Assembly (NCBI GenBank): GCA_041661685.1
Contig: JBAZTY010000001.1
Coordinates: 192,691 to 256,690 of the forward strand
Source: Patescibacteria group bacterium
Lineage (GTDB): Bacteria; Patescibacteriota; Patescibacteriia; Patescibacteriales; UBA12465
Direction: 5' to 3'
DNA length: 64,000 nucleotides
Shown here: in pieces, positions 28,924-40,937 of the stretch
Position numbering within the stretch: position 1 is the first letter of the stretch
Layout of the letters: each line of letters opens with the position of its first letter
Position numbers and translations under genes: made by a program
The notes under the pieces: generated by a model
What the model was told of the DNA's origin: nothing
What the model saw: only the letters and a program-made list of their open reading frames with translations
Database searches by the model: none

Positions 28924-29635
28924 ATGGACATAAACAAGGAACCGCATATTAATAATATGATAAAAAAGAAAGTTTTTCTGACGACCGTTGTTTTTATAAT
29001 GGCTTTTTTTATTTTATTAAAAACTGCGGCGGCCACTAACATCGGTACTAATATTTCTACGGCCGGCAGCCTGACAGTCGATGGCGCTTTGAAATTTACT
29101 AGTGGAGCTGGCAATAGCTTTATCTTAACGACTGATGCTAGTGGCAATACCACTTGGATTGCGGTCAGCGGAGCTTTAAGGAATATTCGATCTCGCTACT
29201 AGGAATTTTTTAAGTTGCACCACTCCAGTTGCTCCTATTACTTCGACTGCTTATGATATTAATCTCTCTAACCGATTAAAGGGAAGAATATTGCTGCAAG
29301 TTGAAGAACGAGGAGAAGCTTATTATATCTATCCGGATGATTTGAAAAAATACTACCTCGGCACCCCTAATGACGCTTTCCGGGTAATGAGAGCTTTAGG
29401 GTTAGGCGCTAATGATAAATTCATTACCGATTATACGGTTTACCCCGCCAGGGTTTCCGGAAAGATCCTCATTAATGTCGACGATTTCGGCAAAGCTTAT
29501 TACATCTCGCCTCTGGATAGGAGGGCTTATTATCTCGGCAGTCCGGAACAAGCTTATCAAGTAATCCGCAGCTTAGGCCTCGGCATCACTAATAATAATC
29601 TGAATAAAATAAGAGCCGGCATCTTGAGCCAATAG
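28924..29635 (+). pseudogene. Frameshift-split surface protein: signal/TM anchor plus tail-fibre-like tip motif (ORF 28924-29202) and two LLQVE..GEAYY..LGLG repeats (frame open 29180-29635)
   Basis: Frame 1 ends ..TWIAVSGALRNIRSRY*. Frame 2 is open from 29180 (GIFDLATRNF..LKGRILLQVEERGEAYY). Removing one A from ttaagg at 29178/29179 would give a continuous ..SGALGIFDL.. protein. Confidence 0.55.
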
Positions 29636-29741: not shown

Positions 29742-30449
29742 ATGCGCCAATTTCACCAAAAAATGATTGCCGGTTTGAATCTCTCTAGGATTTCAGCGGC
29801 AGTGTTGATTGTCTTTACCGGCCTGAACCTAGGTTTTTATGCTCTTGCGTCCAGCACCAGCGAGTTTACGCAGGCTATCAACCCGGGGACTCTAAGTACT
29901 GATATTGTTAATGGATCGTATGTTTCTGTTTCTTCTCCGACTTTCAGCATGAGCGCTGTTCCTTTCAGTTTCTCGTGTCAAGCATCGACCGGGACATTCG
30001 GCTCTGCTACGCAGCAGATATATGTTAAGAATCCAGATGCATCTGACACTGGCTGGACCCTAACTCTGGCTGGATCTTCTCCGACCGCTTACTGGGATAG
30101 CATTACTAGTTCTTTGGATTTCGATTTTAATGACTCGGCTTCCAGCGGCTGCTCTGACGGCGCCGACACCGATATCTTAAAAGGACAGATGACCGTAGAT
30201 CCATCAATAGCTACTCTAGCGAAAGGAGCCTGCGCTGCTTGCGACACGGCTAATATCACTAAAGGAAATTCTACAGCTTTCGCTGAAGGAGCGACCGATA
30301 GCGTTACATTGCTAACGGCTGCAGCTGGTTCTAGTGATATCGGTGATTGGACTTTACAGGGCGTTAGTGTCAGTCAGACTATTCCCGGAGAACAGCCAGC
30401 CGCGAATGATTACAAAGTAAATCTATCTTTAAGTATTGTTGCAAACTAA
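29742..30449 (+). CDS. Small secreted protein consisting of a signal peptide plus a WxL-like domain (true start ATG 29742)
   Basis: Signal/TM ISAAVLIVFTGLNLGFYALA. DASDTGWTLTLAG and DIGDWTLQG motifs. Its C-terminal ~185 aa are homologous to the C-terminus of the giant protein. Confidence 0.6.
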   Translation: MRQFHQKMIAGLNLSRISAAVLIVFTGLNLGFYALASSTSEFTQAINPGTLSTDIVNGSYVSVSSPTFSMSAVPFSFSCQASTGTFGSATQQIYVKNPDASDTGWTLTLAGSSPTAYWDSITSSLDFDFNDSASSGCSDGADTDILKGQMTVDPSIATLAKGACAACDTANITKGNSTAFAEGATDSVTLLTAAAGSSDIGDWTLQGVSVSQTIPGEQPAANDYKVNLSLSIVAN

Positions 30450-30467
30450 GCTAACAATCCTACTAAT

Positions 30468-31631
30468 ATGTTAAAATGTCATTTCCTCCGTAATCGCCAG
30501 ATAACGATTAATGGGGCTTATTTAGTTTTGTTTTCGTTGCTTTTTGTCTTTCCAGTCATTCAGGCTAAGGCAGTCGAATACGGAGGAATCGGCGGACGGC
30601 CGGCTTATCCCCGAACGGATAACCCGCGCACTGAATCTATCTTCATCCATACGCTCAAACCCGGAGATATTCAGAAAGAGGGCGTCTTATTAGTAAATAA
30701 TGCCGCCGAAAAAAAGACTTTATTAGTTTATGGAGTAGATTCCGTAGTTTCTTCCGGTGGAGCCTTTGCTTGCCGACAAATGTCTGAACCGAAAGGAAGC
30801 GTCGGCTCTTGGATAAAACTCGAAAAGAATGAAGTCGTGCTTAATCCTGGCGCCAATGACCTTGTGCCATTTACAATCGAAGTGCCTCAGACCGCTGGCG
30901 TCGGGGAACACAACGGCTGCATTGTCATTCAAGAGAAAAAAGAAGACTCATCCGGACAGGCCGGCGTTAACCTAAGCTTTAGAACCGGCCTAAGAGTCGC
31001 TATCTCTATACCAGGAGAAATCGTTAGGAAGTTGGAGATAACAGAGTTCAGGATCACTAAAGAAGATAATGGCAACATCTTGCTAAGTCCGACCATCAAG
31101 AACTCTGGCAATGTCTCTGTCGATACTAATATTGATGTGACTACTAAAAATATCTTCGGCGGCGCTTATTTAAAACAGGGCGGGGAATTTCCGATTCTGC
31201 GTGACCAGAGTTCAGATTGGAATTTTGAAATCAAGAAGCCCTTTTGGGGCGGATTTTATAGATCAAGCCTTAGAGTCGAATATCAGGAGGATTTGAGCAT
31301 TGAAATCGGTAAAAACTCGAATCAACCGAAAACCGTCTTAACCGGGGAAACTATAACTTTTTTTAGTTTTCCAAAACCCTTGGCTCTAATGGTCGAATTA
31401 CTATTTTTAATCGTTGGCGTTATCATGACGTTCTTGTGGAGAGTTTATAATAAAAGAAAGCAGTGGATTAAAAAGTCATGGAAGGAAACGGAAATAAAAT
31501 CCGGCGAAGACATAAAATCATTAGCTGATCGCCTGGAAGTATCCTGGAGATTGCTCGCTAAGGTCAATAAGCTGCAAGCCCCTTATACGCTCAAGCCGGG
31601 ACAGAAATTAAAGGTTCCTCCCCGTCCCTAA
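30468..31631 (+). CDS. DUF916/DUF3324-like cell-surface protein with C-terminal TM anchor and terminal LysM domain
   Basis: Signal peptide. PAYPRTDNPRTESIFIHTLKPGDIQKEGVLLVNNAAEKKTLLVYGVDS resembles DUF916. The second beta-domain (LEITEFRITKEDNGNILLSPTIKNSGNVSVD) resembles DUF3324. TM LALMVELLFLIVGVIMTFLW is followed by a basic stretch. LysM: IKSGEDIKSLADRLEVSWRLLAKVNKLQAPYTLKPGQKLKVP. Confidence 0.6.
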   Translation: MLKCHFLRNRQITINGAYLVLFSLLFVFPVIQAKAVEYGGIGGRPAYPRTDNPRTESIFIHTLKPGDIQKEGVLLVNNAAEKKTLLVYGVDSVVSSGGAFACRQMSEPKGSVGSWIKLEKNEVVLNPGANDLVPFTIEVPQTAGVGEHNGCIVIQEKKEDSSGQAGVNLSFRTGLRVAISIPGEIVRKLEITEFRITKEDNGNILLSPTIKNSGNVSVDTNIDVTTKNIFGGAYLKQGGEFPILRDQSSDWNFEIKKPFWGGFYRSSLRVEYQEDLSIEIGKNSNQPKTVLTGETITFFSFPKPLALMVELLFLIVGVIMTFLWRVYNKRKQWIKKSWKETEIKSGEDIKSLADRLEVSWRLLAKVNKLQAPYTLKPGQKLKVPPRP

Positions 31632-31637
31632 TATTTT

Positions 31638-32624
31638 ATGAATAAAAATAACGTTACCCGGGAGCAGATTTCTTTTAAGAAACCCTGGCATAAAGATTGG
31701 GTTAAGATTTTTTTGATTGTCTTGTTGCTGTCTAATTTGGCTACTATCGGCATATTAATAAATAAAAATAAGTTGGCTAAGCAGCTGCAGGAGGCGAAAA
31801 AATACCCTCTCCTGGACTTTTCTCGAAATTTCATCGATCAAGATAATTTCCTGAGCAGTATCGAGCCGATAAGAAAATCAATGAAGGAAGCCGTCGCCAA
31901 ATATGAGGCGCAAGGGAATAGGATTAGCGTTTATTTTGAATTCTTAAATACCGGAGCGAATATCTCTATTAATCAAGAAGAGCGTTTCTGGCCGGCTAGC
32001 TTAAGCAAGATGCCGACCGCGCTCGCGGTCATGAAGAAAGTAGAAAACGGGGAATGGAAGCTGAGTAATGAACTGGTGCTTTTCGCGGAAGACCAGGATT
32101 CTCGTTTCGGGGACATCTATCTAAAGACTCCGGGGACGCGCTTCACGATTGAAGAGCTCTTGAAAGAAACTTTGATAAACTCCGATAATACCGCTCATAA
32201 AATATTGGTGCGCAATTTATCTAGTGAAGATTACACGAAATCCTTTGAAGCTTTAGGGTTAGAAGAGTTATACGATGATAACTATGATATCACTGCCAAA
32301 GAATATTCCCGTATTTTTCGCGCTCTATACAGCGCCAGTTATCTTAATCGGGATAATTCCCAAAAATTATTATCATGGCTCACGCAGACGAGCTTTGATG
32401 AATTTATCGGCTCGGGAATACCGACTACGACATTATTTGCTCATAAAATCGGGGAGGAGTACAAGGAGGTCGTTTTCTTGGACTCCGGCATCTTTTATGT
32501 CGCTGGCCGCCCCTGCCTAATTACAGTCATGGCGGAGGTGAAGGACGGCGGCGGCGTCGGGAGCGCCCAGAAAATAATGGGGGAACTGTCAAAAATAGCC
32601 TATGATTACGTGGCGAATAAATAA
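31638..32624 (+). CDS. Membrane-anchored serine hydrolase of the class A beta-lactamase / PBP fold
   Basis: N-terminal TM. SxxK (PASLSKMP), SDN (INSDNTA), and a KTG-like HKIGE. Confidence 0.65.
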   Translation: MNKNNVTREQISFKKPWHKDWVKIFLIVLLLSNLATIGILINKNKLAKQLQEAKKYPLLDFSRNFIDQDNFLSSIEPIRKSMKEAVAKYEAQGNRISVYFEFLNTGANISINQEERFWPASLSKMPTALAVMKKVENGEWKLSNELVLFAEDQDSRFGDIYLKTPGTRFTIEELLKETLINSDNTAHKILVRNLSSEDYTKSFEALGLEELYDDNYDITAKEYSRIFRALYSASYLNRDNSQKLLSWLTQTSFDEFIGSGIPTTTLFAHKIGEEYKEVVFLDSGIFYVAGRPCLITVMAEVKDGGGVGSAQKIMGELSKIAYDYVANK

Positions 32625-35600
32625 AAAAATAAAGACGGTGATGATCGGTATGTTGATCGGCGTCTTTTTTTTATCCGGCTTTCCTTCTAACGTTTTCTTG
32701 GATAAATTAGAGGATTACCTAACCGATAAGAATATAGTCGATTCTCTTTATCATGCCATGAGAGATCCTAATGTCATAGATAGAGGCATGTCCGGACTAA
32801 TGGATGCTAAGACGCCTCAGGCTAATGCCGGAAATTTTCAAATCCAAACCGGCTATTACATCGGAAACGGCGGCGCTAAACAAATCAGCGGACTAGGATT
32901 CTCGCCGCAAATGATCCTCATAAAAGCCAACGATACCGGCGGCACCGGCGCGATCATGAAAACGACAGTCATGCCTAATCTCAATAGCTCATATCTCGGC
33001 GTCGCGACTGCTGACGTCGCAGCGGCCGTGCTGCTCAATCCCGACGGCTTTACTATCTCAGGCGTGACTACCAATACTGCTAATTCCCGCTATACTTGGA
33101 CAGCTTTTGCCGGTTCTGATTGTAGCGCCAGTGGCAATTTCTGCGTCGGCACCTATACCGGCACGGGCACTTCACCCCGATCGGTTACCGTCGGCTTCCA
33201 GCCCGATATGGTCATCGTGAAAGCGGCGACCGCAGTCGCCCCCAATTGGCGTTCATCGGCGATGCCCACTAATTACGGACAGCATTTTATGGCCACGAAC
33301 CAGACTACCGACGGTACTATGTATACCACTCTGGATTCTACTGGTTTTACTGTTGGCAGCGTGAATAATACCAGCGCGACCATCTACTATTATGTCGCTT
33401 TCAAGAATACGGCCGGTTCTATCAATGTCGGCACCTATGCCGGCACGGGCGTAGCTAAGAATGTCACCGGAGTCGGTTTTACCCCTAATTTTGCTTTGAC
33501 TAAGGCGGCGGCGCCGACGACAGCGACGGCGGCAATATATAATAATACGGAATCATATGGTAACTCCAGCAGCTACTTTACCGATACGGTCAATGTTGTC
33601 GGCGGCATCACCGGATTGGATAGCGACGGCTTCGGCGTCGGCACCGGAGCAATGGCTAATATCTCGGGGGCGACCTTCTATTACGCCGCTTTCGGTGGCG
33701 CTTCTGCTGTCAGGAATTCCAGCGGTACTTTTCAGATAGCGCGCGGAACTTACACAGGGACTGGTATAAATCGAGCGATTGATAATCTCGGTTTTAGACC
33801 GGATCTCGTGATCATCAAGGGGAATACGGCGACGGCTGGAGTTTTTAGAACCCGGCTGATGGGCGGAGACCACAGCGCTTATCTCGATGCGGCGACAGCT
33901 AACCTCACCGCCGCCATCACCTCTTTGAATCCTGACGGATTTACTGTTGGCACTGGCGCAACCACGAATAGCGCCGGCGTCACTTATTATTGGACTGCCT
34001 ATGGCAACGCCTGGAATCCGGAAACTAATTCCGGATCATCCGATTTCTATATTGGTGCTTATTATGGCAACGGAATCGATAATCGCAATGTCATCCGTCT
34101 GCCTTTTCAGGCTGACATGGTCGCGACTAAAAGAAACAGCACTACTGGCGGTGCTTTCCGCACCTCGGCGCATTCCGGCGATCTCAGCAGCTTTTTTGCG
34201 GCGACTGCGGAGGCGGCCAATAATATCCAGGTTCTCAATCCCGACGGATTCCAAATCGGCACGGGCACAAATGTCAATGCAGCCGCCAGTCTTTATCATT
34301 ATTTCGGCTTTAAATCCGGAGCTAATTTCGCCGTCGGCACTTATTCCGGCACCGGAGCCGCTAAAGATGTCACTACTGTCGGCTTCCAGCCTGATAATGT
34401 CTGGGTGAAACAGACTGGGGCGGTGCGAGGCGTGTCGCGGCATAGTAATCAATCCGGAGACGCCGCCTTGCCCTTCATTAACGTCGCCTCTATCACCGGA
34501 GCGTTCACCGGCCTGATCTCCACCGGCTTTTCTATCGGCGCTGGCGCGGAAACTAATACCTTGGGGACGAATAATTACCGTTATGCGGCGTGGCGGGCTA
34601 ATACTAGCCCGACGACTCCAAGCTATAAGATCCAAACCGGCTATTACATCGGAAACGGCGGCGCTAAACAAATCAGCGGACTAGGATTCTCGCCGCAAAT
34701 GATCCTCATAAAAGCCAACGATGCCGGCGGCACCGGCGCGATCATGAAAACGACAGTCATGCCTAATCTCAATAGCTCATATCTCGGCGTCGCGACTGCT
34801 GACGTCGCAGCGGCCGTGCTGCTCAATCCCGACGGCTTTACTATCTCAGGCGTGACTACCAATACTGCTAATTCCCGCTATACTTGGACAGCTTTTGCCG
34901 GTTCTGATTGTAGCGCCAGTGGCAATTTCTGCGTCGGCACCTATACCGGCACGGGCACTTCACCCCGATCGGTTACCGTCGGCTTCCAGCCCGATATGGT
35001 CATCGTGAAAGCGGCGACCGCAGTCGCCCCCAATTGGCGTTCATCGGCGATGCCCACTAATTACGGACAGCATTTTATGGCCACGAACCAGACTACCGAC
35101 GGTACTATGTATACCACTCTGGATTCTACTGGTTTTACTGTTGGCAGCGTGAATAATACCAGCGCGACCATCTACTATTATGTCGCTTTCAAGAATACGG
35201 CCGGTTCTATCAATGTCGGCACCTATGCCGGCACGGGCGTAGCTAAGAATGTCACCGGAGTCGGTTTTACCCCTAATTTTGCTTTGACTAAGGCGGCGGC
35301 GCCGACGACAGCGACGGCGGCAATATATAATAATACGGAATCATATGGTAACTCCAGCAGCTACTTTACCGATACGGTCAATGTTGTCGGCGGCATCACC
35401 GGATTGGATAGCGACGGCTTCGGCGTCGGCACCGGAGCAATGGCTAATATCTCGGGGGCGACCTTCTATTACGCCGCTTTCGGTGGCGCTTCTGCTGTCA
35501 GGAATTCCAGCGGTACTTTTCAGATAGCGCGCGGAACTTACACAGGGACTGGTATAAATCGAGCGATTGATAATCTCGGTTTTAGACCGGATCTCGTGAT

Positions 35601-37401
35601 CATCAAGGGGAATACGGCGACGGCTGGAGTTTTTAGAACCCGGCTGATGGGCGGAGACCACAGCGCTTATCTCGATGCGGCGACAGCTAACCTCACCGCC
35701 GCCATCACCTCTTTGAATCCTGACGGATTTACTGTTGGCACTGGCGCAACCACGAATAGCGCCGGCGTCACTTATTATTGGACTGCCTATGGCAACGCCT
35801 GGAATCCGGAAACTAATTCCGGATCATCCGATTTCTATATTGGTGCTTATTATGGCAACGGAATCGATAATCGCAATGTCATCCGTCTGCCTTTTCAGGC
35901 TGACATGGTCGCGACTAAAAGAAACAGCACTACTGGCGGTGCTTTCCGCACCTCGGCGCATTCCGGCGATCTCAGCAGCTTTTTTGCGGCGACTGCGGAG
36001 GCGGCCAATAATATCCAGGTTCTCAATCCCGACGGATTCCAAATCGGCACGGGCACAAATGTCAATGCAGCCGCCAGTCTTTATCATTATTTCGGCTTTA
36101 AATCCGGAGCTAATTTCGCCGTCGGCACTTATTCCGGCACCGGAGCCGCTAAAGATGTCACTACTGTCGGCTTCCAGCCTGATAATGTCTGGGTGAAACA
36201 GACTGGGGCGGTGCGAGGCGTGTCGCGGCATAGTAATCAATCCGGAGACGCCGCCTTGCCCTTCATTAACGTCGCCTCTATCACCGGAGCGTTCACCGGC
36301 CTGATCTCCACCGGCTTTTCTATCGGCGCTGGCGCGGAAACTAATACCTTGGGGACGAATAATTACCGTTATGCGGCGTGGCGGTTGCCCGATATCGCTA
36401 ATATTTCAATAGCCGCTTACGGTTCGCAAATCGCATCTCTCGGCATACCTTCAGCCGGACAATATCTCGGCGGCGCCTTTACTTTTATCAGAAGCGGCGG
36501 CTCGGCCAATATCACAAGCCTAACATTATCAGAAAATGGTACAGTCAACGCCTCTTCCTATATCTCCGAACTTACTTTGAAATATGAAATCGCCGACACG
36601 TGCAACTACGACGGCACCGAGGCTACCTTCGGCAACACCGCCTCTTTCGCCTCCGAGAAGGCAACGGTCAGCGGCAATATGCCAGTCGGCAGCGCGCAAG
36701 TCTGTCTTTATCCAATCATCACTGTCGGGACTGGAGTAGATAATGGCAGCACGCTTGATCTCAGCATCGATTCTTTAAGCGACATTTTAATCTCTTCCGG
36801 CTCCGGATCAGGTTCTTTCCCCGTAAATATCAGCGGCTTGACTAATCTGATTTCCGGATCGCTGACGGTTGATATCGTTGATAGTGATGGCAGTACTATC
36901 GCTAACCCATCTTTAGCCATGGATCCAATAAATTTTGCCTTTATCTCGCAAACCGCCAGCGGGACGCTAGGAGTCTCTTCTAAAAAAATCCGAATAGATA
37001 ATAATTCCGGTAATGCGCAATGGACGCTATCTATCGCGGCTACGGGGGGTAATACCAGTGTTTGGAGTGGCGCCGGAAATACCTACGATTTTAACGATAT
37101 CAGCGCCGGCGGTAATGATGGGGCAGATCTTGATTCTTATGGCGGCCAAATGAATTTCAATCCCGGGATCGCCGTCATCACCCCCGAGAGCGGCTGTGAA
37201 ACTACTGGCTTAACTCTAGGCAGTCCTTCATCTTTTGCGGAGGGAGTTCTCGACTCCGTCAACATATTAAGCGCTAACTCTTCAGCTCAGACCGGCTGTT
37301 ATTGGGATTTGACCGGAATCGGAATAAGCCAAACGATTCCCGCAGAACAAGTGACTGATAATTATTCGATTAATATGACTTTAACTATAACCGCCATATA
37401 A
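32602..37401 (+). CDS. Giant secreted repeat protein (about 1590 aa) with 12 ~100-aa modules and a C-terminal WxL-like domain (alternative start ATG 32641)
   Basis: N-terminal TM/signal MIGMLIGVFFLSGF. Twelve modules follow the pattern GxYxGxG..V.GVGFxPDxVxxK...LNPDGFTVG...YYYxAF. The C-terminal region is homologous to ORF 29742-30449 (..QWTLSIAA.., ..SQTIPAEQ..). Confidence 0.85.
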   Translation: MITWRINKKIKTVMIGMLIGVFFLSGFPSNVFLDKLEDYLTDKNIVDSLYHAMRDPNVIDRGMSGLMDAKTPQANAGNFQIQTGYYIGNGGAKQISGLGFSPQMILIKANDTGGTGAIMKTTVMPNLNSSYLGVATADVAAAVLLNPDGFTISGVTTNTANSRYTWTAFAGSDCSASGNFCVGTYTGTGTSPRSVTVGFQPDMVIVKAATAVAPNWRSSAMPTNYGQHFMATNQTTDGTMYTTLDSTGFTVGSVNNTSATIYYYVAFKNTAGSINVGTYAGTGVAKNVTGVGFTPNFALTKAAAPTTATAAIYNNTESYGNSSSYFTDTVNVVGGITGLDSDGFGVGTGAMANISGATFYYAAFGGASAVRNSSGTFQIARGTYTGTGINRAIDNLGFRPDLVIIKGNTATAGVFRTRLMGGDHSAYLDAATANLTAAITSLNPDGFTVGTGATTNSAGVTYYWTAYGNAWNPETNSGSSDFYIGAYYGNGIDNRNVIRLPFQADMVATKRNSTTGGAFRTSAHSGDLSSFFAATAEAANNIQVLNPDGFQIGTGTNVNAAASLYHYFGFKSGANFAVGTYSGTGAAKDVTTVGFQPDNVWVKQTGAVRGVSRHSNQSGDAALPFINVASITGAFTGLISTGFSIGAGAETNTLGTNNYRYAAWRANTSPTTPSYKIQTGYYIGNGGAKQISGLGFSPQMILIKANDAGGTGAIMKTTVMPNLNSSYLGVATADVAAAVLLNPDGFTISGVTTNTANSRYTWTAFAGSDCSASGNFCVGTYTGTGTSPRSVTVGFQPDMVIVKAATAVAPNWRSSAMPTNYGQHFMATNQTTDGTMYTTLDSTGFTVGSVNNTSATIYYYVAFKNTAGSINVGTYAGTGVAKNVTGVGFTPNFALTKAAAPTTATAAIYNNTESYGNSSSYFTDTVNVVGGITGLDSDGFGVGTGAMANISGATFYYAAFGGASAVRNSSGTFQIARGTYTGTGINRAIDNLGFRPDLVIIKGNTATAGVFRTRLMGGDHSAYLDAATANLTAAITSLNPDGFTVGTGATTNSAGVTYYWTAYGNAWNPETNSGSSDFYIGAYYGNGIDNRNVIRLPFQADMVATKRNSTTGGAFRTSAHSGDLSSFFAATAEAANNIQVLNPDGFQIGTGTNVNAAASLYHYFGFKSGANFAVGTYSGTGAAKDVTTVGFQPDNVWVKQTGAVRGVSRHSNQSGDAALPFINVASITGAFTGLISTGFSIGAGAETNTLGTNNYRYAAWRLPDIANISIAAYGSQIASLGIPSAGQYLGGAFTFIRSGGSANITSLTLSENGTVNASSYISELTLKYEIADTCNYDGTEATFGNTASFASEKATVSGNMPVGSAQVCLYPIITVGTGVDNGSTLDLSIDSLSDILISSGSGSGSFPVNISGLTNLISGSLTVDIVDSDGSTIANPSLAMDPINFAFISQTASGTLGVSSKKIRIDNNSGNAQWTLSIAATGGNTSVWSGAGNTYDFNDISAGGNDGADLDSYGGQMNFNPGIAVITPESGCETTGLTLGSPSSFAEGVLDSVNILSANSSAQTGCYWDLTGIGISQTIPAEQVTDNYSINMTLTITAI
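32842..36384 (+). repeat. In-frame tandem duplication: two 1755-bp copies (32842-34596 and 34630-36384) separated by a 33-bp linker, period 1788 bp
   Basis: Direct comparison at offset 1788. I found a single mismatch (A at 32935 versus G at 34723, Thr/Ala). All six-frame ORFs in the two copies are duplicated at exactly +1788 (for example 33553..33873 and 35341..35661). Confidence 0.95.
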
Positions 37402-37404
37402 TTC

Positions 37405-38439
37405 TTGCCCGTGCGCTATAAAAACAAAAAAACAAGAATCTTCTTCCTTTCCTGCTGGCTGACCGCCGTAGCAGCTATTTTTATATCGGCGATCATGATC
37501 GACACAGCCAAGGCGGCTTCTTACGCCGGCCTAAAGATAAGCATTACTCCCGGACCAGAATGTTATGACGGGAAAGATAACGACAGCGACGGCAAGATGG
37601 ATTATCCGGCTGATTCAGATTGCGATTCCACGAATGATAACAGTGAATTTCCGCTTATCGTCAACAATGTAAGCAGCGGAGGGGGCGGAGGAAGCATCGC
37701 GCCGATAACCAGTGTCACCTTATCCGGCTATGCTTATCCTTTAAATAAGATAACTATCTTAAAAGACGGGCAAATCGCCTTAACTACTATCGCCGGACCC
37801 GATGCAATCTTTAATGCCGTCCTGACCGGACTAACAGAAGGGTTTTATAATTTTTCCATATACAGCGAAGATATCTACGGATTAAAATCAGGTGCCTTCA
37901 CGTTCCCAGTTTACATAACTAAGGGCGCCAGCACTAATATCGGCGGCATCTTTCTCGCCCCGACTATAAAATTAGATAAAGAAAGCGTTAAAAGCGGAGA
38001 TAATATTACGATTCTCGGGCAGAGTGCGCCTAACGCCGAAATAAATATTACTGTCAATTCAGAAAAGGAGAATATCATCAAAACTAAAACCGACCAGAAC
38101 GGCGTCTATTCTTATGATTTCGATACCGCCCTCTTGGAACTCGGAGATCATAGCGCCAAATCCAAATCAACGTTGAAGAAGCAAGTCAGTTCCTATAGCA
38201 AAATAGTCGGCTTCAAGGTCTTTGAGGATAAAGCCTCCGCGGCCGCTTATGAGGAAGAGAAGCAAGGGGAAACGGCGAAGGGCGACTTCAATAATGATAA
38301 CAAGGTCGATCTGATAGATTTTTCTATCCTGTCCTATTGGTACAAGAAACCGCAGCCGCCGACGATAGTGGACATGAATAAGGACGGCCGCATAAATATC
38401 ATAGATTTTTCTATCCTAGCTTTTAGCTGGACAGGTTGA
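37405..38439 (+). CDS. Secreted protein with Cys/Asp-rich metal-binding-like motif, Ig-like domains and a C-terminal dockerin-like module
   Basis: Signal/TM. CYDGKDNDSDGKMDYPADSDCDS. The C-terminus has two EF-hand-like repeats, GDFNNDNKVDLIDFSIL and DMNKDGRINIIDFSIL (dockerin type I pattern). Confidence 0.7.
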   Translation: MPVRYKNKKTRIFFLSCWLTAVAAIFISAIMIDTAKAASYAGLKISITPGPECYDGKDNDSDGKMDYPADSDCDSTNDNSEFPLIVNNVSSGGGGGSIAPITSVTLSGYAYPLNKITILKDGQIALTTIAGPDAIFNAVLTGLTEGFYNFSIYSEDIYGLKSGAFTFPVYITKGASTNIGGIFLAPTIKLDKESVKSGDNITILGQSAPNAEINITVNSEKENIIKTKTDQNGVYSYDFDTALLELGDHSAKSKSTLKKQVSSYSKIVGFKVFEDKASAAAYEEEKQGETAKGDFNNDNKVDLIDFSILSYWYKKPQPPTIVDMNKDGRINIIDFSILAFSWTG

Positions 38440-38445
38440 GGCCAT

Positions 38446-39384
38446 ATGAAAAAACGAGAAAATATCCGAATACTTTTATTTTTCAGCACTCTGATGATGT
38501 TAGGTCTTTTTTCTTTCCCTAAAAGAAGCGAAGCGGCTAGGCTATTCTATTCTTGGCCGGAAGGGGAGATATGTAAAGGGCAGGAGATAAGGTTAGATAT
38601 TTTTATTGATACTGAGGAGAGGGATATCAACGCGCTAGAAGGAAAGATAAGCCTCGCGGGCGAAGCGCTGGATCTAAGAGAAATAAGCGAGGGTAATTCT
38701 TTTATTAATTTCTGGGTAGAGACGCCTCGGATAGAAAATCAAGAAATAAGATTCGCTGGCATCATCCCGGGAGGGTATAGCGGCCGAAAAGGCTTATTAT
38801 TTTCCATCTTCTTGAGAGCGGGGGCGTCCGGCCAAGGGGCGTTAAGATTGGAAGACGCCCGGGCGTTCGCTAATGACGGCTTAGGCACGGAGCTCCGGCT
38901 TAATTATTATGAAGCTGATATCAATATCAGAGAAACGCCAGCCCAAGGACAGGTCTCCGAATCTCCTACAATAATCGATAATGATGCTCCAGAAAAATTT
39001 CCCATTCTCCTGGCGCGCGATCCCCTTATCTTTGAAAATCTCTGGTTTTTAACTTTCGCCACTCAAGATAAAGGCTCGGGAATAAAATATTTCGAAGTCA
39101 GAGAAGAGAATAGCTTGGATGGAGATGGCGGGGACGACTGGGAAAAAGCCGACAGCCCTTACCTTATCAAGGACCAAGATCTAACCAGCCGCATCACCAT
39201 CAAGGCGGTAGACCGCGCTGGCAATGAGACTCTCAGCGTCCTAGAGGCGCCGAATCAAGCATTGATTAGCCATAATAAAGCTAAAAATGATATAATAAAA
39301 ATAGTTTTAATCACCTTAGCCCTAGGGCTGATAATTTTTATATTTCTGCTATGGAAAAAAGCTCGAAAAAAATCTACAAAATAA
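38446..39384 (+). CDS. Cohesin-like domain protein with C-terminal TM anchor
   Basis: Signal peptide. Cohesin-like beta-sandwich (IRLDIFIDTEERDINALEGKISLAGEALDLREISEGNSFINFW...GLLFSIFLRAGASGQGALRLEDARAFANDGLGTEL). An Ig-like module (DAPEKF...DKGSGIKYFEV...AVDRAGNET). C-terminal TM followed by KKARKK. Confidence 0.65.
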   Translation: MKKRENIRILLFFSTLMMLGLFSFPKRSEAARLFYSWPEGEICKGQEIRLDIFIDTEERDINALEGKISLAGEALDLREISEGNSFINFWVETPRIENQEIRFAGIIPGGYSGRKGLLFSIFLRAGASGQGALRLEDARAFANDGLGTELRLNYYEADINIRETPAQGQVSESPTIIDNDAPEKFPILLARDPLIFENLWFLTFATQDKGSGIKYFEVREENSLDGDGGDDWEKADSPYLIKDQDLTSRITIKAVDRAGNETLSVLEAPNQALISHNKAKNDIIKIVLITLALGLIIFIFLLWKKARKKSTK

Positions 39385-40937
39385 TATTGTCCATCGCCAT
39401 CTTTATTTTTTCTGCCGTTAACGCCCAGGCCGCGACGCTTTTCTTGTCCCCGGCGTCTTCTTCTTATTTTAGCGACAAAACCTTCACGGTGGGCGTTTAT
39501 GTGACGAGCAGCGACCAAAGTATTAACGCGGTGTCGGGTATCGCCTCTTTTCCGACAGACAAGTTGGAAGTCGTCTCCATATCTAAATCAGGCAGTCTTT
39601 TTAATTTCTGGGCCCAAGAGCCTTCTTTTTCTAATAGCAGCGGAAAAGTCAGCTTCGAGGGCGTGATCCTTAATCCCGGCTTTAAGGGGTCTTACGGGAA
39701 ACTACTAACCATAAGCTTTAAGGCTAAAGGAATCGGCCAAGCGCCAATATCCTTTAGTTCAGCGTCCGTCTTGGCTAACGACGGGCTAGGCACTAACGTG
39801 CTCTCTGGAACAGGTGGCGCTGAAATCTCAATCAAGAAAGTAGTCGAAGAAGAAAAAGTAGGAAAGGAAGAAATAAACGCTGAAATCACAGCCTCCTTGA
39901 GTAGCTCAACGGCTGCTTATCCGGTAGTCCCGAAAATAACCTCCAAGACTAACCCCGATCCGGAGAAATGGTATAATATCGACGTTCCTTATTTTCTCTG
40001 GGACCTTCCCGAGGGGGTGATCAGCGTCAGCCTGCTCATTGATCAGAATAAGCATTCCGCTCCTCTGATATCCTACATGCCCGCCATCAGGGAAAAAGCG
40101 ATAACCGGTCTGGATGATGGTTCCTGGTATCTGCATATAGCCTTTAAATACGCGGACGGGACTAGCACTGTCCAGCATTTCCCCTTCAATGTCGATAAGA
40201 CCGCTCCAGAGTCGCTCGGCGTCTCCATCATCGCCGATAATGGCAATAATATAGGCGTCAGAAGCTTCATCATCGCCGGCGTAGACAAGGAATCAGGCAT
40301 CGCCGATTATGAGATAACGATAGACAACCAAGAACCGATCAAATGGGGAAATTATAGCGACAATATCTTCCAGACCCCGCTCCTTGATTCCGGAGAACAT
40401 ACAATCAAGGTGCGAGTCTATGATAAAGCTGGGAATTATAAAGAGGAATCGCAAAAATTCACTGTGACTTCTATCCGGATTCCGGAAATAGACGCTTATC
40501 CGGAAAAAATAGGCTATAATTCGGAGCTGACGATCAGCGGCCGGTCTATACCAGAAAACCATGTGATAATAACTTTTGATCGCCAGGGGAAATATCAAAG
40601 AAATTATCTAGTGCTATGCGATCAGGCTGGCAATTTTACCTTTGTCCTGGATCGCCTTATTCCGGGTGAATACAGTTTTTACGCTCGGACTATAGATACT
40701 AAAGGCAATAAGAGCCAGGCCACCTCTATTTATAATTTCAGAGCAAAATACTTCTTTGGAATGATCTGGCCTTATTTTACGGGGATATTCTTGTTTTTAA
40801 TCTTGGCGTTGCTGATTATAAGCGGGCGAATCCTGCTCAACCGAAAAAATAATCGGTCTTGGGCCGGGAAAGAGACAGCGCGCCTTCTTCCGATAATCAA
40901 AAAAAAGACGAACAAGAGGCCAAAAAAACTTGTTTGA
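39351..40937 (+). CDS. Cohesin-like domain protein with Ig-like domains and C-terminal TM anchor (paralog of 38446-39384)
   Basis: Signal peptide ending in AQA. Cohesin-like FTVGVYVTSSDQSINAVSGIASFPTDKLEVVSISKSGSLFNFW...KLLTISFKAKGIGQAPISFSSASVLANDGLGTNVL. DKTAPES...DKESGIADYEI...VYDKAGNYKE. C-terminal TM plus a basic tail. Confidence 0.65.
   Translation: MEKSSKKIYKIILSIAIFIFSAVNAQAATLFLSPASSSYFSDKTFTVGVYVTSSDQSINAVSGIASFPTDKLEVVSISKSGSLFNFWAQEPSFSNSSGKVSFEGVILNPGFKGSYGKLLTISFKAKGIGQAPISFSSASVLANDGLGTNVLSGTGGAEISIKKVVEEEKVGKEEINAEITASLSSSTAAYPVVPKITSKTNPDPEKWYNIDVPYFLWDLPEGVISVSLLIDQNKHSAPLISYMPAIREKAITGLDDGSWYLHIAFKYADGTSTVQHFPFNVDKTAPESLGVSIIADNGNNIGVRSFIIAGVDKESGIADYEITIDNQEPIKWGNYSDNIFQTPLLDSGEHTIKVRVYDKAGNYKEESQKFTVTSIRIPEIDAYPEKIGYNSELTISGRSIPENHVIITFDRQGKYQRNYLVLCDQAGNFTFVLDRLIPGEYSFYARTIDTKGNKSQATSIYNFRAKYFFGMIWPYFTGIFLFLILALLIISGRILLNRKNNRSWAGKETARLLPIIKKKTNKRPKKLV

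Follow-up and report, generated by a model that had tools for sequence, protein, structure and literature searches.

A probable Patescibacteria version of the Gram-positive WxL/WxLIP cell-surface gene cluster

WxLIPs, also known as CscA or DufA, combine a DUF916 domain (PF06030), a DUF3324 domain (PF11797) and a transmembrane (TM) helix, and occur in Enterococcus, Listeria and Lactiplantibacillus. The WxL proteins (PF13731) comprise a small form, CscB/Swp, and a large form, CscC/Lwp, and a small LPxTG protein is a frequent, though not obligatory, member of their gene clusters. Among the structures used below, PDB entry 9i1y is a solved WxLIP (EfmWxLIP1) and 9i25 is a WxLIP bound to a long WxL protein. 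According to earlier descriptions, WxL/WxLIP clusters hardly occur outside Lactobacillales and Bacillales, and they have been tied to adhesion and virulence (PMC9772566, PMC10599100).

In this study, we analysed a 64-kb stretch of DNA (the window) from a Patescibacteria MAG, a setting far outside both Lactobacillales and Bacillales; an earlier note on this DNA had placed it outside the Lactobacillales-type context. One locus in the window encodes a type-I membrane protein with a WxLIP-homologous ectodomain, made of DUF916 and a second Ig-like domain, and two exported proteins with one common domain of about 185 aa, which stands alone in one and C-terminal to 1400 aa of repeats in the other. 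We read the locus, with a probability of roughly 65%, as the Patescibacteria version of the Gram-positive WxL/WxLIP cell-surface cluster.

A membrane anchor with a WxLIP-homologous ectodomain

The anchor protein and its parts lie as follows.

30468..31631, plus strand: WxLIP-like membrane anchor, 387 aa (profile, hhalign, fold)
30573..31013, plus strand: DUF916 / WxLIP peptidoglycan-binding-domain homologue, residues 36-182 (profile E 3.4e-7)
31014..31367, plus strand: second beta-sandwich domain, residues 183-300, in the DUF3324 / host-binding-domain position (fold, position)
31380..31439, plus strand: TM helix, residues ~305-324, followed by RVYNKRKQWIKK (hydrophobic stretch; helix 304-337 in the model)
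31494..31619, plus strand: LysM, residues 343-384, predicted to lie on the cytoplasmic side (PF01476)

The protein runs from a signal peptide (a hydrophobic N-terminus with an A-K-A site, read from the sequence) through the DUF916/PGBD domain, the second Ig-like domain, the TM helix and a K/R-rich stretch to the LysM. A profile built from 48 anchor orthologues matched the EfmWxLIP1 chains 9i25_C and 9i1y_A over residues 35-177 (E 3.4e-7). Comparison by hhalign of the first domain with canonical WxLIPs gave a probability of 95% (E 3.7e-8), and that of the ectodomain with eight proteins annotated 'DUF916 and DUF3324' gave 93.9% (E 1.5e-7, 224 columns). On the window's anchor, PF06030 covered profile positions 7-120 of 121 at E 2.8e-4 (21.4 bits; the cut-off is 27.3 bits); it is precomputed in 14 of the best 120 anchor orthologues, and two are named 'DUF916 domain-containing protein' by NCBI. 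The AlphaFold model of the anchor (pLDDT 85) had WxLIP entries as its top three PDB matches in Foldseek (E 6e-14 to 3e-13; TM 0.60-0.62; 270-283 columns), the best being 9i1y and 9i25 with both domains aligned. A VDSxxSxGGAFAC stretch in the DUF916 domain is conserved and has low pLDDT. Judged by sequence profiles and predicted fold, the anchor is a true relative of the Gram-positive WxLIP.

Of the three elements that the earlier note had assigned to this protein, the DUF916-like segment is borne out by the profile, hhalign and fold matches, and the TM helix with an acquired LysM is likewise present. The third, a DUF3324-like second domain, holds by fold and position: the Foldseek alignment to the two-domain chain 9i1y_A extends over both anchor domains (283 columns, TM 0.60), and the ectodomain hhalign runs co-linearly on into the second domain. 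It does not hold by sequence, as this domain has no PF11797 match and reaches only 0.1% in hhalign when taken alone.

The LysM matched PF01476 well above its cut-off (E 9.2e-9, 35.6 bits against 20.9, profile positions 3-43 of 43), the anchor profile also matched PDB LysM chains, and about 117 of the best 120 anchor orthologues carry the domain. Over the 48 orthologues, the 15 aa that precede the TM helix hold on average 1.0 K and R residues, and the 15 aa that follow it hold 5.2. Since the LysM lies beyond both the helix and the K/R-rich stretch, it is predicted from the positive-inside rule to be cytoplasmic. Its location on the C-terminal, K/R-rich side of the helix had been missed before, and the published WxLIP model makes no provision for a LysM in the cytoplasm.

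CPR bacteria are typically epibionts, and the usual LysM ligand is peptidoglycan or chitin outside the cell; both facts would suit an anchor whose TM helix and LysM act externally, the tail reaching the host envelope and the LysM binding host peptidoglycan. Insertion of the WxLIP helix into the host membrane has indeed been proposed (PMC10599100). The succession of signal peptide, ectodomain, helix and K/R flank is, however, that of a textbook type-I protein of the cell's own membrane, the tails of canonical WxLIPs, being short and basic, resemble cytoplasmic ones, and nothing points to release of the anchor protein, so that we consider action outside the cell very improbable. On the predicted cytoplasmic side, the LysM might bind a GlcNAc-containing precursor or localise the complex to sites of wall synthesis.

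A domain common to a small and a large exported protein

The two exported proteins and their motifs are the following.

29742..30449, plus strand: small secreted protein, 235 aa, signal peptide plus one beta domain of ~187 aa (same start as the NCBI protein)
29742..29849, plus strand: predicted signal peptide of the small protein, residues 1-36 (hydrophobic core then AxA, by reading the sequence)
30051..30074, plus strand: first Trp motif GWTLTLAG, residues 104-111 (W105 invariant)
30345..30356, plus strand: second Trp motif DWTL, residues 202-205 (W203 invariant among close orthologues)
30411..30437, plus strand: C-terminal strand YKVNLSLSI, residues 224-232 (Y224 invariant)
32602..37401, plus strand: large secreted protein, 1599 aa, DUF7483 repeats then the shared domain (Pfam, BLASTP)
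36856..37398, plus strand: C-terminal domain of the large protein, ~181 aa, with QWTLSIAA, YWDL and YSINMTLTI (BLASTP, family HMM)

The small ORF corresponds to an NCBI protein (P0001) with 100% identity and coverage and an identically called start. It has the make-up described in the earlier note, a signal peptide (putative cleavage after A34-L35-A36) and a single domain of ~185 aa, and the GWTL, (D/Y)W(T/D)L and terminal Y.(V/I)N motifs named there are all present. Among 49 orthologues these motifs are conserved far above chance level, W105 and W203 being invariant and L205 and L230 nearly so; in distant family members the W203 position is not conserved (W, Y or I). The mature protein is acidic (pI ~4.05), as has been reported for small WxL proteins (PMC9772566). 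Its N-terminus, residues 37-48, is strictly conserved (T39, F42 and Q44 invariant) and is the single segment that AlphaFold fails to place (pLDDT <50) in a model that has helices at residues 2-11 and 14-32 and an overall pLDDT of only 74.7.

The C-terminus of the 1599-aa protein is the same domain as the small protein (35% identity, BLASTP E 6e-32; family HMM E 6.7e-75), and the small and large CPR versions form one family at 35-57% identity. The gene for the large protein has a putative tandem duplication of 1788 nt. A word-index search with the small protein returned 765 matches, none with a Pfam domain, and clustering at 50% identity leaves 708 representatives of the domain family at E<=1e-3. 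Of 267 family members, 264 have the domain ending no more than three residues from the C-terminus; 163 of the 267 are small (<=270 aa) and 104 are larger, up to 1961 aa. The domain is acidic and rich in Cys and Asp, with four conserved Cys and an invariant acidic loop, DFDFND...D.D.D (D126, D128, F129, N130, D131, D139, D142, D144). No second copy of this family or of the anchor family was found elsewhere in the 64-kb window. The ORF at 32602-37401 had been overlooked in the earlier note as ending in the small protein's domain.

Direct searches did not connect the domain with WxL. PF13731 had no match among 49 close and 31 diverse domain members even at E<=10, while a genuine small WxL protein, the positive control, was matched at 2e-46, and purpose-built HMMs of canonical WxL proteins gave only ~11 bits on the CPR domain. 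Profiles of the CPR domain matched no PDB chain at E<=10, and hence not 9i25_A, the solved long WxL. With the small-protein model, Foldseek returned nothing at E<=0.001 and no WxL in the top 50 of a PDB set that includes 9i25_A; the comparison of predicted structures that the earlier note had suggested thus came out for the anchor, whose best matches are WxLIPs, and not for the small protein.

Profile-profile comparison gave a fainter but ordered signal. A homologue search from the real small WxL protein SwpA yielded only 16 close relatives, so diverse WxL proteins were drawn from annotated plasmids; the real WxL reference locus (L001) was from the E. faecium group. The best hhalign result set a diverse sample of CPR domains against 12 annotated small WxL proteins, also diverse, and was full-length and co-linear over 158 columns (E 7.5e-4) with a probability of 25%, which is under the usual threshold. 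The alignment scored 30.9, and the highest score among 100 block-shuffled controls was 25.8. The elements that match up in it are GxLxxD, the first GWxL, GxGTW/GDW and the terminal strand, and in 20 hhalign profile pairings nearly all set N-terminal with N-terminal and C-terminal with C-terminal parts. The remaining pairings had probabilities of 0.2-18%, the value dropping to 0.2% when the narrow A4 alignment served as the canonical profile, and the narrow orthologue alignment had no match to single WxL sequences; canonical small against large WxL, the positive control, gave 99.2%. The -glob mode produced a meaningless overlap of ends and was discarded.

Of the two W-x-(L/V) motifs in the small protein, at W105 and W203, only the first faces a canonical WxL motif in the best alignment: GWTLTLAG lies opposite the first WxL motif of canonical small WxL proteins, with 'Q.IyV.Np....gWtlsiAA' paired with 'vQVsD.RG...GWtltV'. 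The Trp of DWTL falls opposite the canonical 'GxGTW' Trp and not opposite the second WxL motif. At the C-terminus, L230-S-I232 faces the final W-x-L in this best alignment, which is of low confidence. The earlier note had claimed that the final WxL motif is replaced here; the position agrees with the claim, which also presupposes a WxL homology that is not proven for the ~187-aa domain. On balance we think that the shared domain is most likely a very remote WxL homologue in which the last W-x-L has turned into L-x-I, a judgement that leans to this side of even without going far beyond it.

Two other identities were considered and dropped. DUF6060 was a weak Pfam match (E 0.003) in only one or two members. 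The N-terminal 'AGTLSVD' is reminiscent of TasA-type proteins; Peptidase_M73 was weak in one member, and no TasA or camelysin chain of the PDB was matched at E<=10.

Small, anchor and large genes stay together across CPR lineages

Further surface-protein genes accompany the triad in the window.

31638..32624, plus strand: membrane-anchored class-A beta-lactamase / DD-peptidase-fold protein, 328 aa (PF13354, E 6e-38)
37405..40937, plus strand: three more surface-protein genes, for a 344-aa dockerin-bearing, a 312-aa and a 528-aa protein (Pfam, synteny)

The genes for the small, WxLIP-like and large proteins lie next to one another both in the window and at six independent places (L010 and L011 are the same place and were counted once; at L013, which is cut by a contig end, only the small and anchor genes are visible; in the L015 lineage the genes are broken under table 11). 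This adjacency is kept across distant CPR lineages, even on contigs of 2-3 kb, and at least 22 pairs across the two best-120 homologue lists, one for the domain and one for the anchor, lie on contigs of identical size. The variant had been called lineage-specific, which is too narrow for a cluster found across many CPR lineages. A WxL cluster has been defined as two or more WxL proteins and one or more WxLIPs encoded within four genes of one another (Hassan et al. 2023, PMC10599100). The order in the window (small, anchor, one intervening gene, large) matches the WxL-cluster architecture, as do the other loci, and calling the locus a WxL cluster depends on accepting the shared domain as WxL. 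With a large protein that ends in the small protein's domain, the locus is more WxL-like than the earlier note had claimed. The N-terminal regions of the large proteins have no similarity between loci, and those of canonical large WxL proteins are likewise variable (PMC9772566). The small protein is the CPR counterpart of the 'small WxL' protein and the large protein that of the 'large WxL' protein.

The intervening beta-lactamase-fold protein has SLSK and SDN motifs, by reading, and its gene stands between the anchor and large genes in 3 of 7 loci. The three genes at 37405..40937 are kept with the cluster in the closest lineages. The 312-aa and 528-aa proteins have a signal peptide, a common N-terminal domain, a C-terminal TM helix and a basic tail; a cohesin identity, suggested by eye as partner of the dockerin, found no support in Pfam or PDB sequence searches. 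No LPxTG-like motif was found in six non-triad neighbour proteins of the window. A sortase gene lies near one related locus (L016).

Neighbouring surface proteins are many (dockerin, Big_13, HlyD/MacB among them), and the ~187-aa domain might accordingly be an unrelated CPR-specific wall or S-layer module that happens to lie beside a DUF916 protein, each protein acting independently, for example with the LysM protein as a wall-binding factor. Its lack of a significant sequence or structure tie to WxL and its four conserved Cys and acidic loop, both foreign to WxL, speak for such a module. Yet the order and adjacency of the triad persist across distant CPR lineages, the small/large/C-terminal architecture is exactly that of WxL clusters, and the co-linear WxL alignment beats 100 of 100 shuffles; we therefore think an unrelated module unlikely.

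If the locus is a WxL/WxLIP-type cluster, as we prefer, its working may be sketched by analogy with the solved E. faecium complex of a WxLIP with a long WxL and with the published model. The anchor would bind the shared domain through its DUF916 domain, probably by beta-strand augmentation of an incomplete sandwich, and both exported proteins would in this way be kept at the cell surface. The variable N-terminal region of the large protein, which here consists of DUF7483 repeats, would serve as an outward adhesin or host-contact module.

The same parts could instead build a fibre or pilus, with the shared domain as its pilin-type subunit, Ig-like but incomplete. The WxLIP-like protein, tethered to the membrane, would then act as chaperone or base in the manner of the chaperones of chaperone-usher pili, donor-strand exchange would link copies of the small protein into a polymer, and the adhesin on the fibre would be the large protein. 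In Foldseek, the small-protein model matched with probability 0.7-0.9 only donor-strand-complemented fibre subunits, namely CsuA/B of the archaic Csu pilus (E 0.03-0.05) and Pyrodictium cannulae (E 0.07), with FimG and Ena lower in the list; these matches are not significant (TM 0.30/0.45, rmsd ~8 A). The anchor model matched, next after WxLIP, the two-domain pilus chaperones CfaA (E 1.6e-10), CsuC, Caf1M, EcpB and CupB2, but Ig-like two-domain proteins readily match one another. The unplaced, conserved N-terminus of the small protein speaks for a fibre, as does strand insertion into WxL, which is part of the published WxLIP model (PMC10599100). A corresponding segment is seemingly present in large proteins too, since the profile match begins at positions 26-38 in several of them and 'LTNLISGSL' occupies the equivalent place in that of the window, so that it is not peculiar to a shaft subunit. 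The CPR cluster showed neither an usher nor any other assembly component, and we know of no reported polymers of WxL proteins. A fibre is thus doubtful in our view. Doubtful to a slightly greater degree, as a joint proposal, is that the CPR cluster, and by extension WxL/WxLIP generally, would be a monoderm analogue of chaperone-usher pili, with strand donation by the WxLIP, a short fibre of the small protein, a variable large adhesin for holding the host and coupling of the LysM to wall precursors.

Comparison with known systems

What the data describe is a CPR-wide variant of a known WxL/WxLIP-type system. Among the papers searched in full text, none connected WxL or DUF916 with CPR bacteria; a few anchors already bear the label 'DUF916' from automated annotation, so what is new is the partner family and the cluster reading only. 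A conserved, recognisable counterpart across Patescibacteria would carry the system into a very large radiation of bacteria, most of them uncultivated, and offer a testable candidate for adhesin display on the ultrasmall CPR surface, which bears on host-cell attachment. It would also give a named hypothesis for about 700 clusters of 'hypothetical' proteins without a Pfam model, and a route to lineage-variable candidate adhesins, namely any protein ending in the shared domain.

With the chaperone-subunit pairs CfaA-CfaB, CsuC-CsuA/B and Caf1M-Caf1, the CPR cluster shares a two-Ig-domain holder (Foldseek E 1e-10 to 1e-6), a small-protein model that weakly resembles CsuA/B, and strand donation into an incomplete sandwich as the proposed binding mode. 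It differs in having no usher and presumably no outer membrane, and in a membrane-anchored holder; the two systems resemble each other in fold alone, and for the subunit the resemblance is weak.

Compared with WxLIP, the CPR anchor has about 17% identity and belongs to Patescibacteria, not Bacilli. It has two conserved Cys, and the window's anchor falls just under the Pfam DUF916 cut-off, with nothing matching DUF3324. The canonical NQIDKxxxYFDLK reads DNPRTESIFIHTL, which stands opposite it with position and hydrophobic pattern kept and residues changed, and a LysM follows the TM helix where canonical tails are 5-15 basic residues. The order is nevertheless the same, with a signal peptide, DUF916, a second Ig-like domain, a single C-terminal TM helix and a basic flank; the size is close (387 aa against 337-365 aa), and the gene lies beside those of small and large proteins with a common C-terminal domain.

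The CPR domain, for its part, differs from WxL in escaping both the Pfam model and all sequence and structure searches of the PDB, in reading L-x-I for the last W-x-L (best alignment), in its four conserved Cys and invariant acidic loop, and in lacking a Pro-rich N-terminal linker. Canonical small and large WxL domains have been reported to differ in topology (PMC9772566), whereas the CPR small and large versions are one family. Like WxL, however, it is a C-terminal domain of about 185 aa whose gene lies beside that of a WxLIP, it has an acidic domain-only small form and a large form with variable N-terminal passengers, and it bears, in co-linear order, GxLxxD, hydrophobic-x-(D/N)...GW-x-(L/V), a later Trp and a terminal Y..x.L.x.(L/I) strand.

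Relationship of the anchor to WxL-interacting proteins

The anchor encoded in the window, which comes from a Patescibacteria (CPR) metagenome-assembled genome, is a genuine relative of the Gram-positive WxL-interacting proteins (WxLIPs), in which a DUF916 and a DUF3324 domain precede a TM helix.

Main features of the cluster in the window
29742-30449, + strand: small protein, 235 aa; hydrophobic N-terminus to A-L-A, beta-rich domain after it
30468-31631, + strand: anchor, 387 aa; DUF916-like start, second beta domain, TM helix, LysM
31638-32624: membrane-anchored class-A beta-lactamase/DD-peptidase-fold protein (PF13354; SLSK and SDN present); also at 10922-11884 in L012 and 9090-10073 in L014, two related loci from Patescibacteria (CPR)
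32602-37401, + strand: large protein, 1599 aa

Alone, the window protein scored 21.4 bits against Pfam DUF916 (threshold 27.3), with the whole model covered. Among its 120 closest orthologues (52–60% identical, full length), 14 had a precomputed PF06030 match and two are named DUF916 protein by NCBI. A profile of 48 anchor orthologues matched the Enterococcus faecium WxLIP (PDB 9i25 chain C and 9i1y) with an E value of 3.4e-7; in this alignment both mature N-termini coincide and DNPRTESIFIHTL lies opposite canonical NQIDKxxxYFDLK. When compared by hhalign with eight canonical WxLIPs (proteins annotated as 'DUF916 and DUF3324 domain-containing' from Enterococcus, Listeria, Lactococcus, Bacillus and Companilactobacillus loci), the ectodomain gave 93.9% over 224 co-linear columns and the first domain 95%. 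Foldseek, suggested as a check by the earlier note, returned WxLIP entries as the three best PDB matches of the AlphaFold model (pLDDT 85; E 6e-14 to 3e-13, TM 0.60–0.62 on target). Because 270–283 columns were covered, both anchor domains are aligned to the WxLIP structures; next in rank were two-domain chaperones of chaperone-usher pili. The DUF916-like character claimed for the anchor is thus borne out by profiles and structure. The second beta domain, proposed to be DUF3324-like, aligns structurally with WxLIP, but on its own it had no hhalign match to the eight canonical proteins.

The LysM attributed to the anchor is also present, above the Pfam cut-off (E 9e-9), and nearly all close orthologues have one, while the anchor of the related locus L016 has none. 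Within window 31440-31631 it comes C-terminal to the TM helix, from which residues rich in K and R separate it, an order kept in nearly all orthologues. Across 48 orthologues the mean K+R count is 1.0 in the 15 residues preceding the helix and 5.2 in the 15 following it. Given an N-terminal signal peptide, a TM helix and then a K/R-rich flank, the anchor is predicted to be a type-I membrane protein whose tail, including LysM, is cytoplasmic, an unusual side for a peptidoglycan-binding module. In canonical WxLIPs the tail is short and basic, whereas that of the window anchor bears LysM.

The shared C-terminal domain and its possible link to WxL

The small protein, identical to a 'MAG: hypothetical protein' of a Patescibacteria group bacterium (NCBI, 434-kb contig), has the predicted layout of signal peptide plus domain. 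All the motifs noticed earlier were located, namely GWTLTLAG (residues 104–111), DWTL (202–205) and the terminal YKVNLSLSI (224–232), with W105 and W203 invariant across 49 orthologues (55–71% identity); judged from these sequences, motif conservation is far above chance. A word-indexed search gave 765 family matches. After clustering at 50% identity, an exhaustive profile search gave 708 cluster representatives with E ≤ 1e-3, of which 406 reach E ≤ 1e-30; no Pfam domain or informative name occurred among the members found. Of 267 family proteins, 163 small (≤270 aa) and 104 large (maximum 1961 aa), 264 have the end of the domain, which is about 187 aa long, no more than three residues from their C-terminus. 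Its four conserved cysteines and invariant acidic D-F-D-F-N-D...D..D.D loop are absent from canonical WxL. The loop corresponds to window 30117-30176 (small-protein residues 126–145), where D126, D128, F129, N130, D131, D139, D142 and D144 are invariant and Cys137 is conserved, and its sequence looks like a thrombospondin type 3-like motif for calcium binding. A faint TSP3_bac match also lies within an insertion of the anchor at the related locus L010.

The Pfam WxL model, which gives 2e-46 with a genuine small WxL protein, had no match, even at E ≤ 10, among 49 close and 31 diverse members from CPR, and the CPR domain profiles matched no PDB chain, the long WxL domain of 9i25 chain A included. 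Foldseek found nothing in the PDB at E ≤ 0.001 for the small-protein model, whose pLDDT is only moderate (74.7); the best, non-significant matches were donor-strand-complemented fibre subunits CsuA/B and cannulae. Profile–profile comparison gave a weak but consistent signal. Comparing 267 domains from CPR with 21 small WxL proteins of canonical type gave an E value of 0.005 (probability 6.7%), the most diverse sets (31 CPR, 12 canonical) gave 7.5e-4 (probability 25%, 158 co-linear columns), and with a narrow canonical alignment the signal was lost (E 0.3). The 31-versus-12 alignment, at its probability of 25%, brings four elements into register. These are GxLxxD, the first GW-x-L together with the hydrophobic-x-(D/N) before it, a Trp further on (DIGDW in CPR, GxGTW in canonical proteins) and the terminal strand, where CPR L230-S-I232 lies opposite canonical W-x-L. 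None of the block-shuffled controls reached the real score (0/60 and 0/100), nearly all 20 profile pairings joined N- with N- and C- with C-terminal regions, and small versus large canonical WxL, used as the positive control, gave 99.2%. The shared domain is probably a remote homologue of the WxL domain (about 60% by our estimate), homology being unproven; for the WxL-like label given earlier, the co-linear alignment scores above all shuffles, but Pfam and PDB chains give no match.

Anchor homology, a common C-terminal domain, secretion signals and conserved gene linkage are evidenced here. By analogy with 9i25, described as WxLIP bound to long WxL, and with the published model, the anchor DUF916 domain would use strand augmentation to hold the shared domain, and the small protein and large variable adhesin would thereby be displayed on the cell surface. 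The case for a fibre-forming variant is thin, drawing on structural neighbours that are pilus chaperones for the anchor and pilins for the small protein.

The large protein and the gene neighbourhood

The last ~181 residues of the large protein match the whole domain of the small protein at 35% identity (E 6e-32), which on sequence grounds makes it a third partner, overlooked in the earlier note. No similarity was found between the N-terminal parts of large proteins from different loci. Part of the large gene is duplicated in tandem, the period being 1788 nt (copies at window 32842-34596 and 34630-36384; 1 difference in 1755 nt; each ~596 aa of DUF7483 repeats); the duplication is either very recent or an assembly artefact.

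Synteny was sampled around six homologues of the small protein, each from another CPR lineage; Kerfeldbacteria, Nomurabacteria and Peregrinibacteria are among the named sources. The anchor gene adjoins the small gene at every place, and a large gene with the C-terminal shared domain is one or two genes away at each except L013, where the contig end cuts the locus. L016 has two small genes, and L015 has the order anchor-large-small. ORFs at L015 1879-9738 are short under table 11, yet the gene caller gives three proteins (372, 1992 and 245 aa), so the source is probably a lineage in which a stop codon has been reassigned, of the Gracilibacteria/Absconditabacteria type. At least 22 pairs between the small-protein and anchor homologue lists sit on contigs of identical size, many only 2–3 kb.

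The window genes of interest are all on the + strand, amid housekeeping genes (Kup transporter, DEAD-box helicase, UvrA/B, P-type ATPase). A longer block is conserved with the nearest relatives, L012 and L014: small, anchor, beta-lactamase-fold, large, dockerin, 312-aa and 528-aa proteins. The beta-lactamase-fold protein, encoded between anchor and large genes in all three loci, may serve wall remodelling or surface-protein attachment. Downstream of the triad, window 37405-40937 encodes the dockerin-bearing protein (344 aa) and two paralogues (312 and 528 aa), each with a signal peptide, an N-terminal domain of ~140 aa common to both and, towards the C-terminus, a TM helix followed by a basic tail. 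L012 and L014 keep these three genes alongside the cluster. A cohesin-dockerin pairing of these proteins, suspected by eye, found no support when their sequences were searched against Pfam and the PDB. A 114-aa ORF (29291-29635) that shortly precedes the small gene is made up of two copies of one ~50-aa unit (…AYYI.P.D...YYLG.P..A..V.R.LGLG…); it has no Pfam match, and the other loci have no equivalent. Directly upstream of the small gene in L012 (5395-8875, 1.19-Mb contig) are five consecutive type IV pilin-like genes with weak N_methyl matches, two of them also with Laminin_G_3.

Comparison with known WxL clusters

Full-text searches found no literature linking WxL or DUF916 to Patescibacteria/CPR, and a Patescibacteria genetics paper does not mention WxL/DUF916. 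Since no such link was found, while some anchors already carry a DUF916 tag in databases, what is new is a widespread CPR version of a WxL/WxLIP-type system and, with it, a domain family that had not been described. According to Hassan and Williamson, the minimal WxL cluster comprises a WxLIP plus a small and a large protein that have their C-terminal domain in common (PMC9772566, PMC10599100). The triad in the window, in which small and large proteins share their C-terminal domain and accompany the anchor, has the same architecture.
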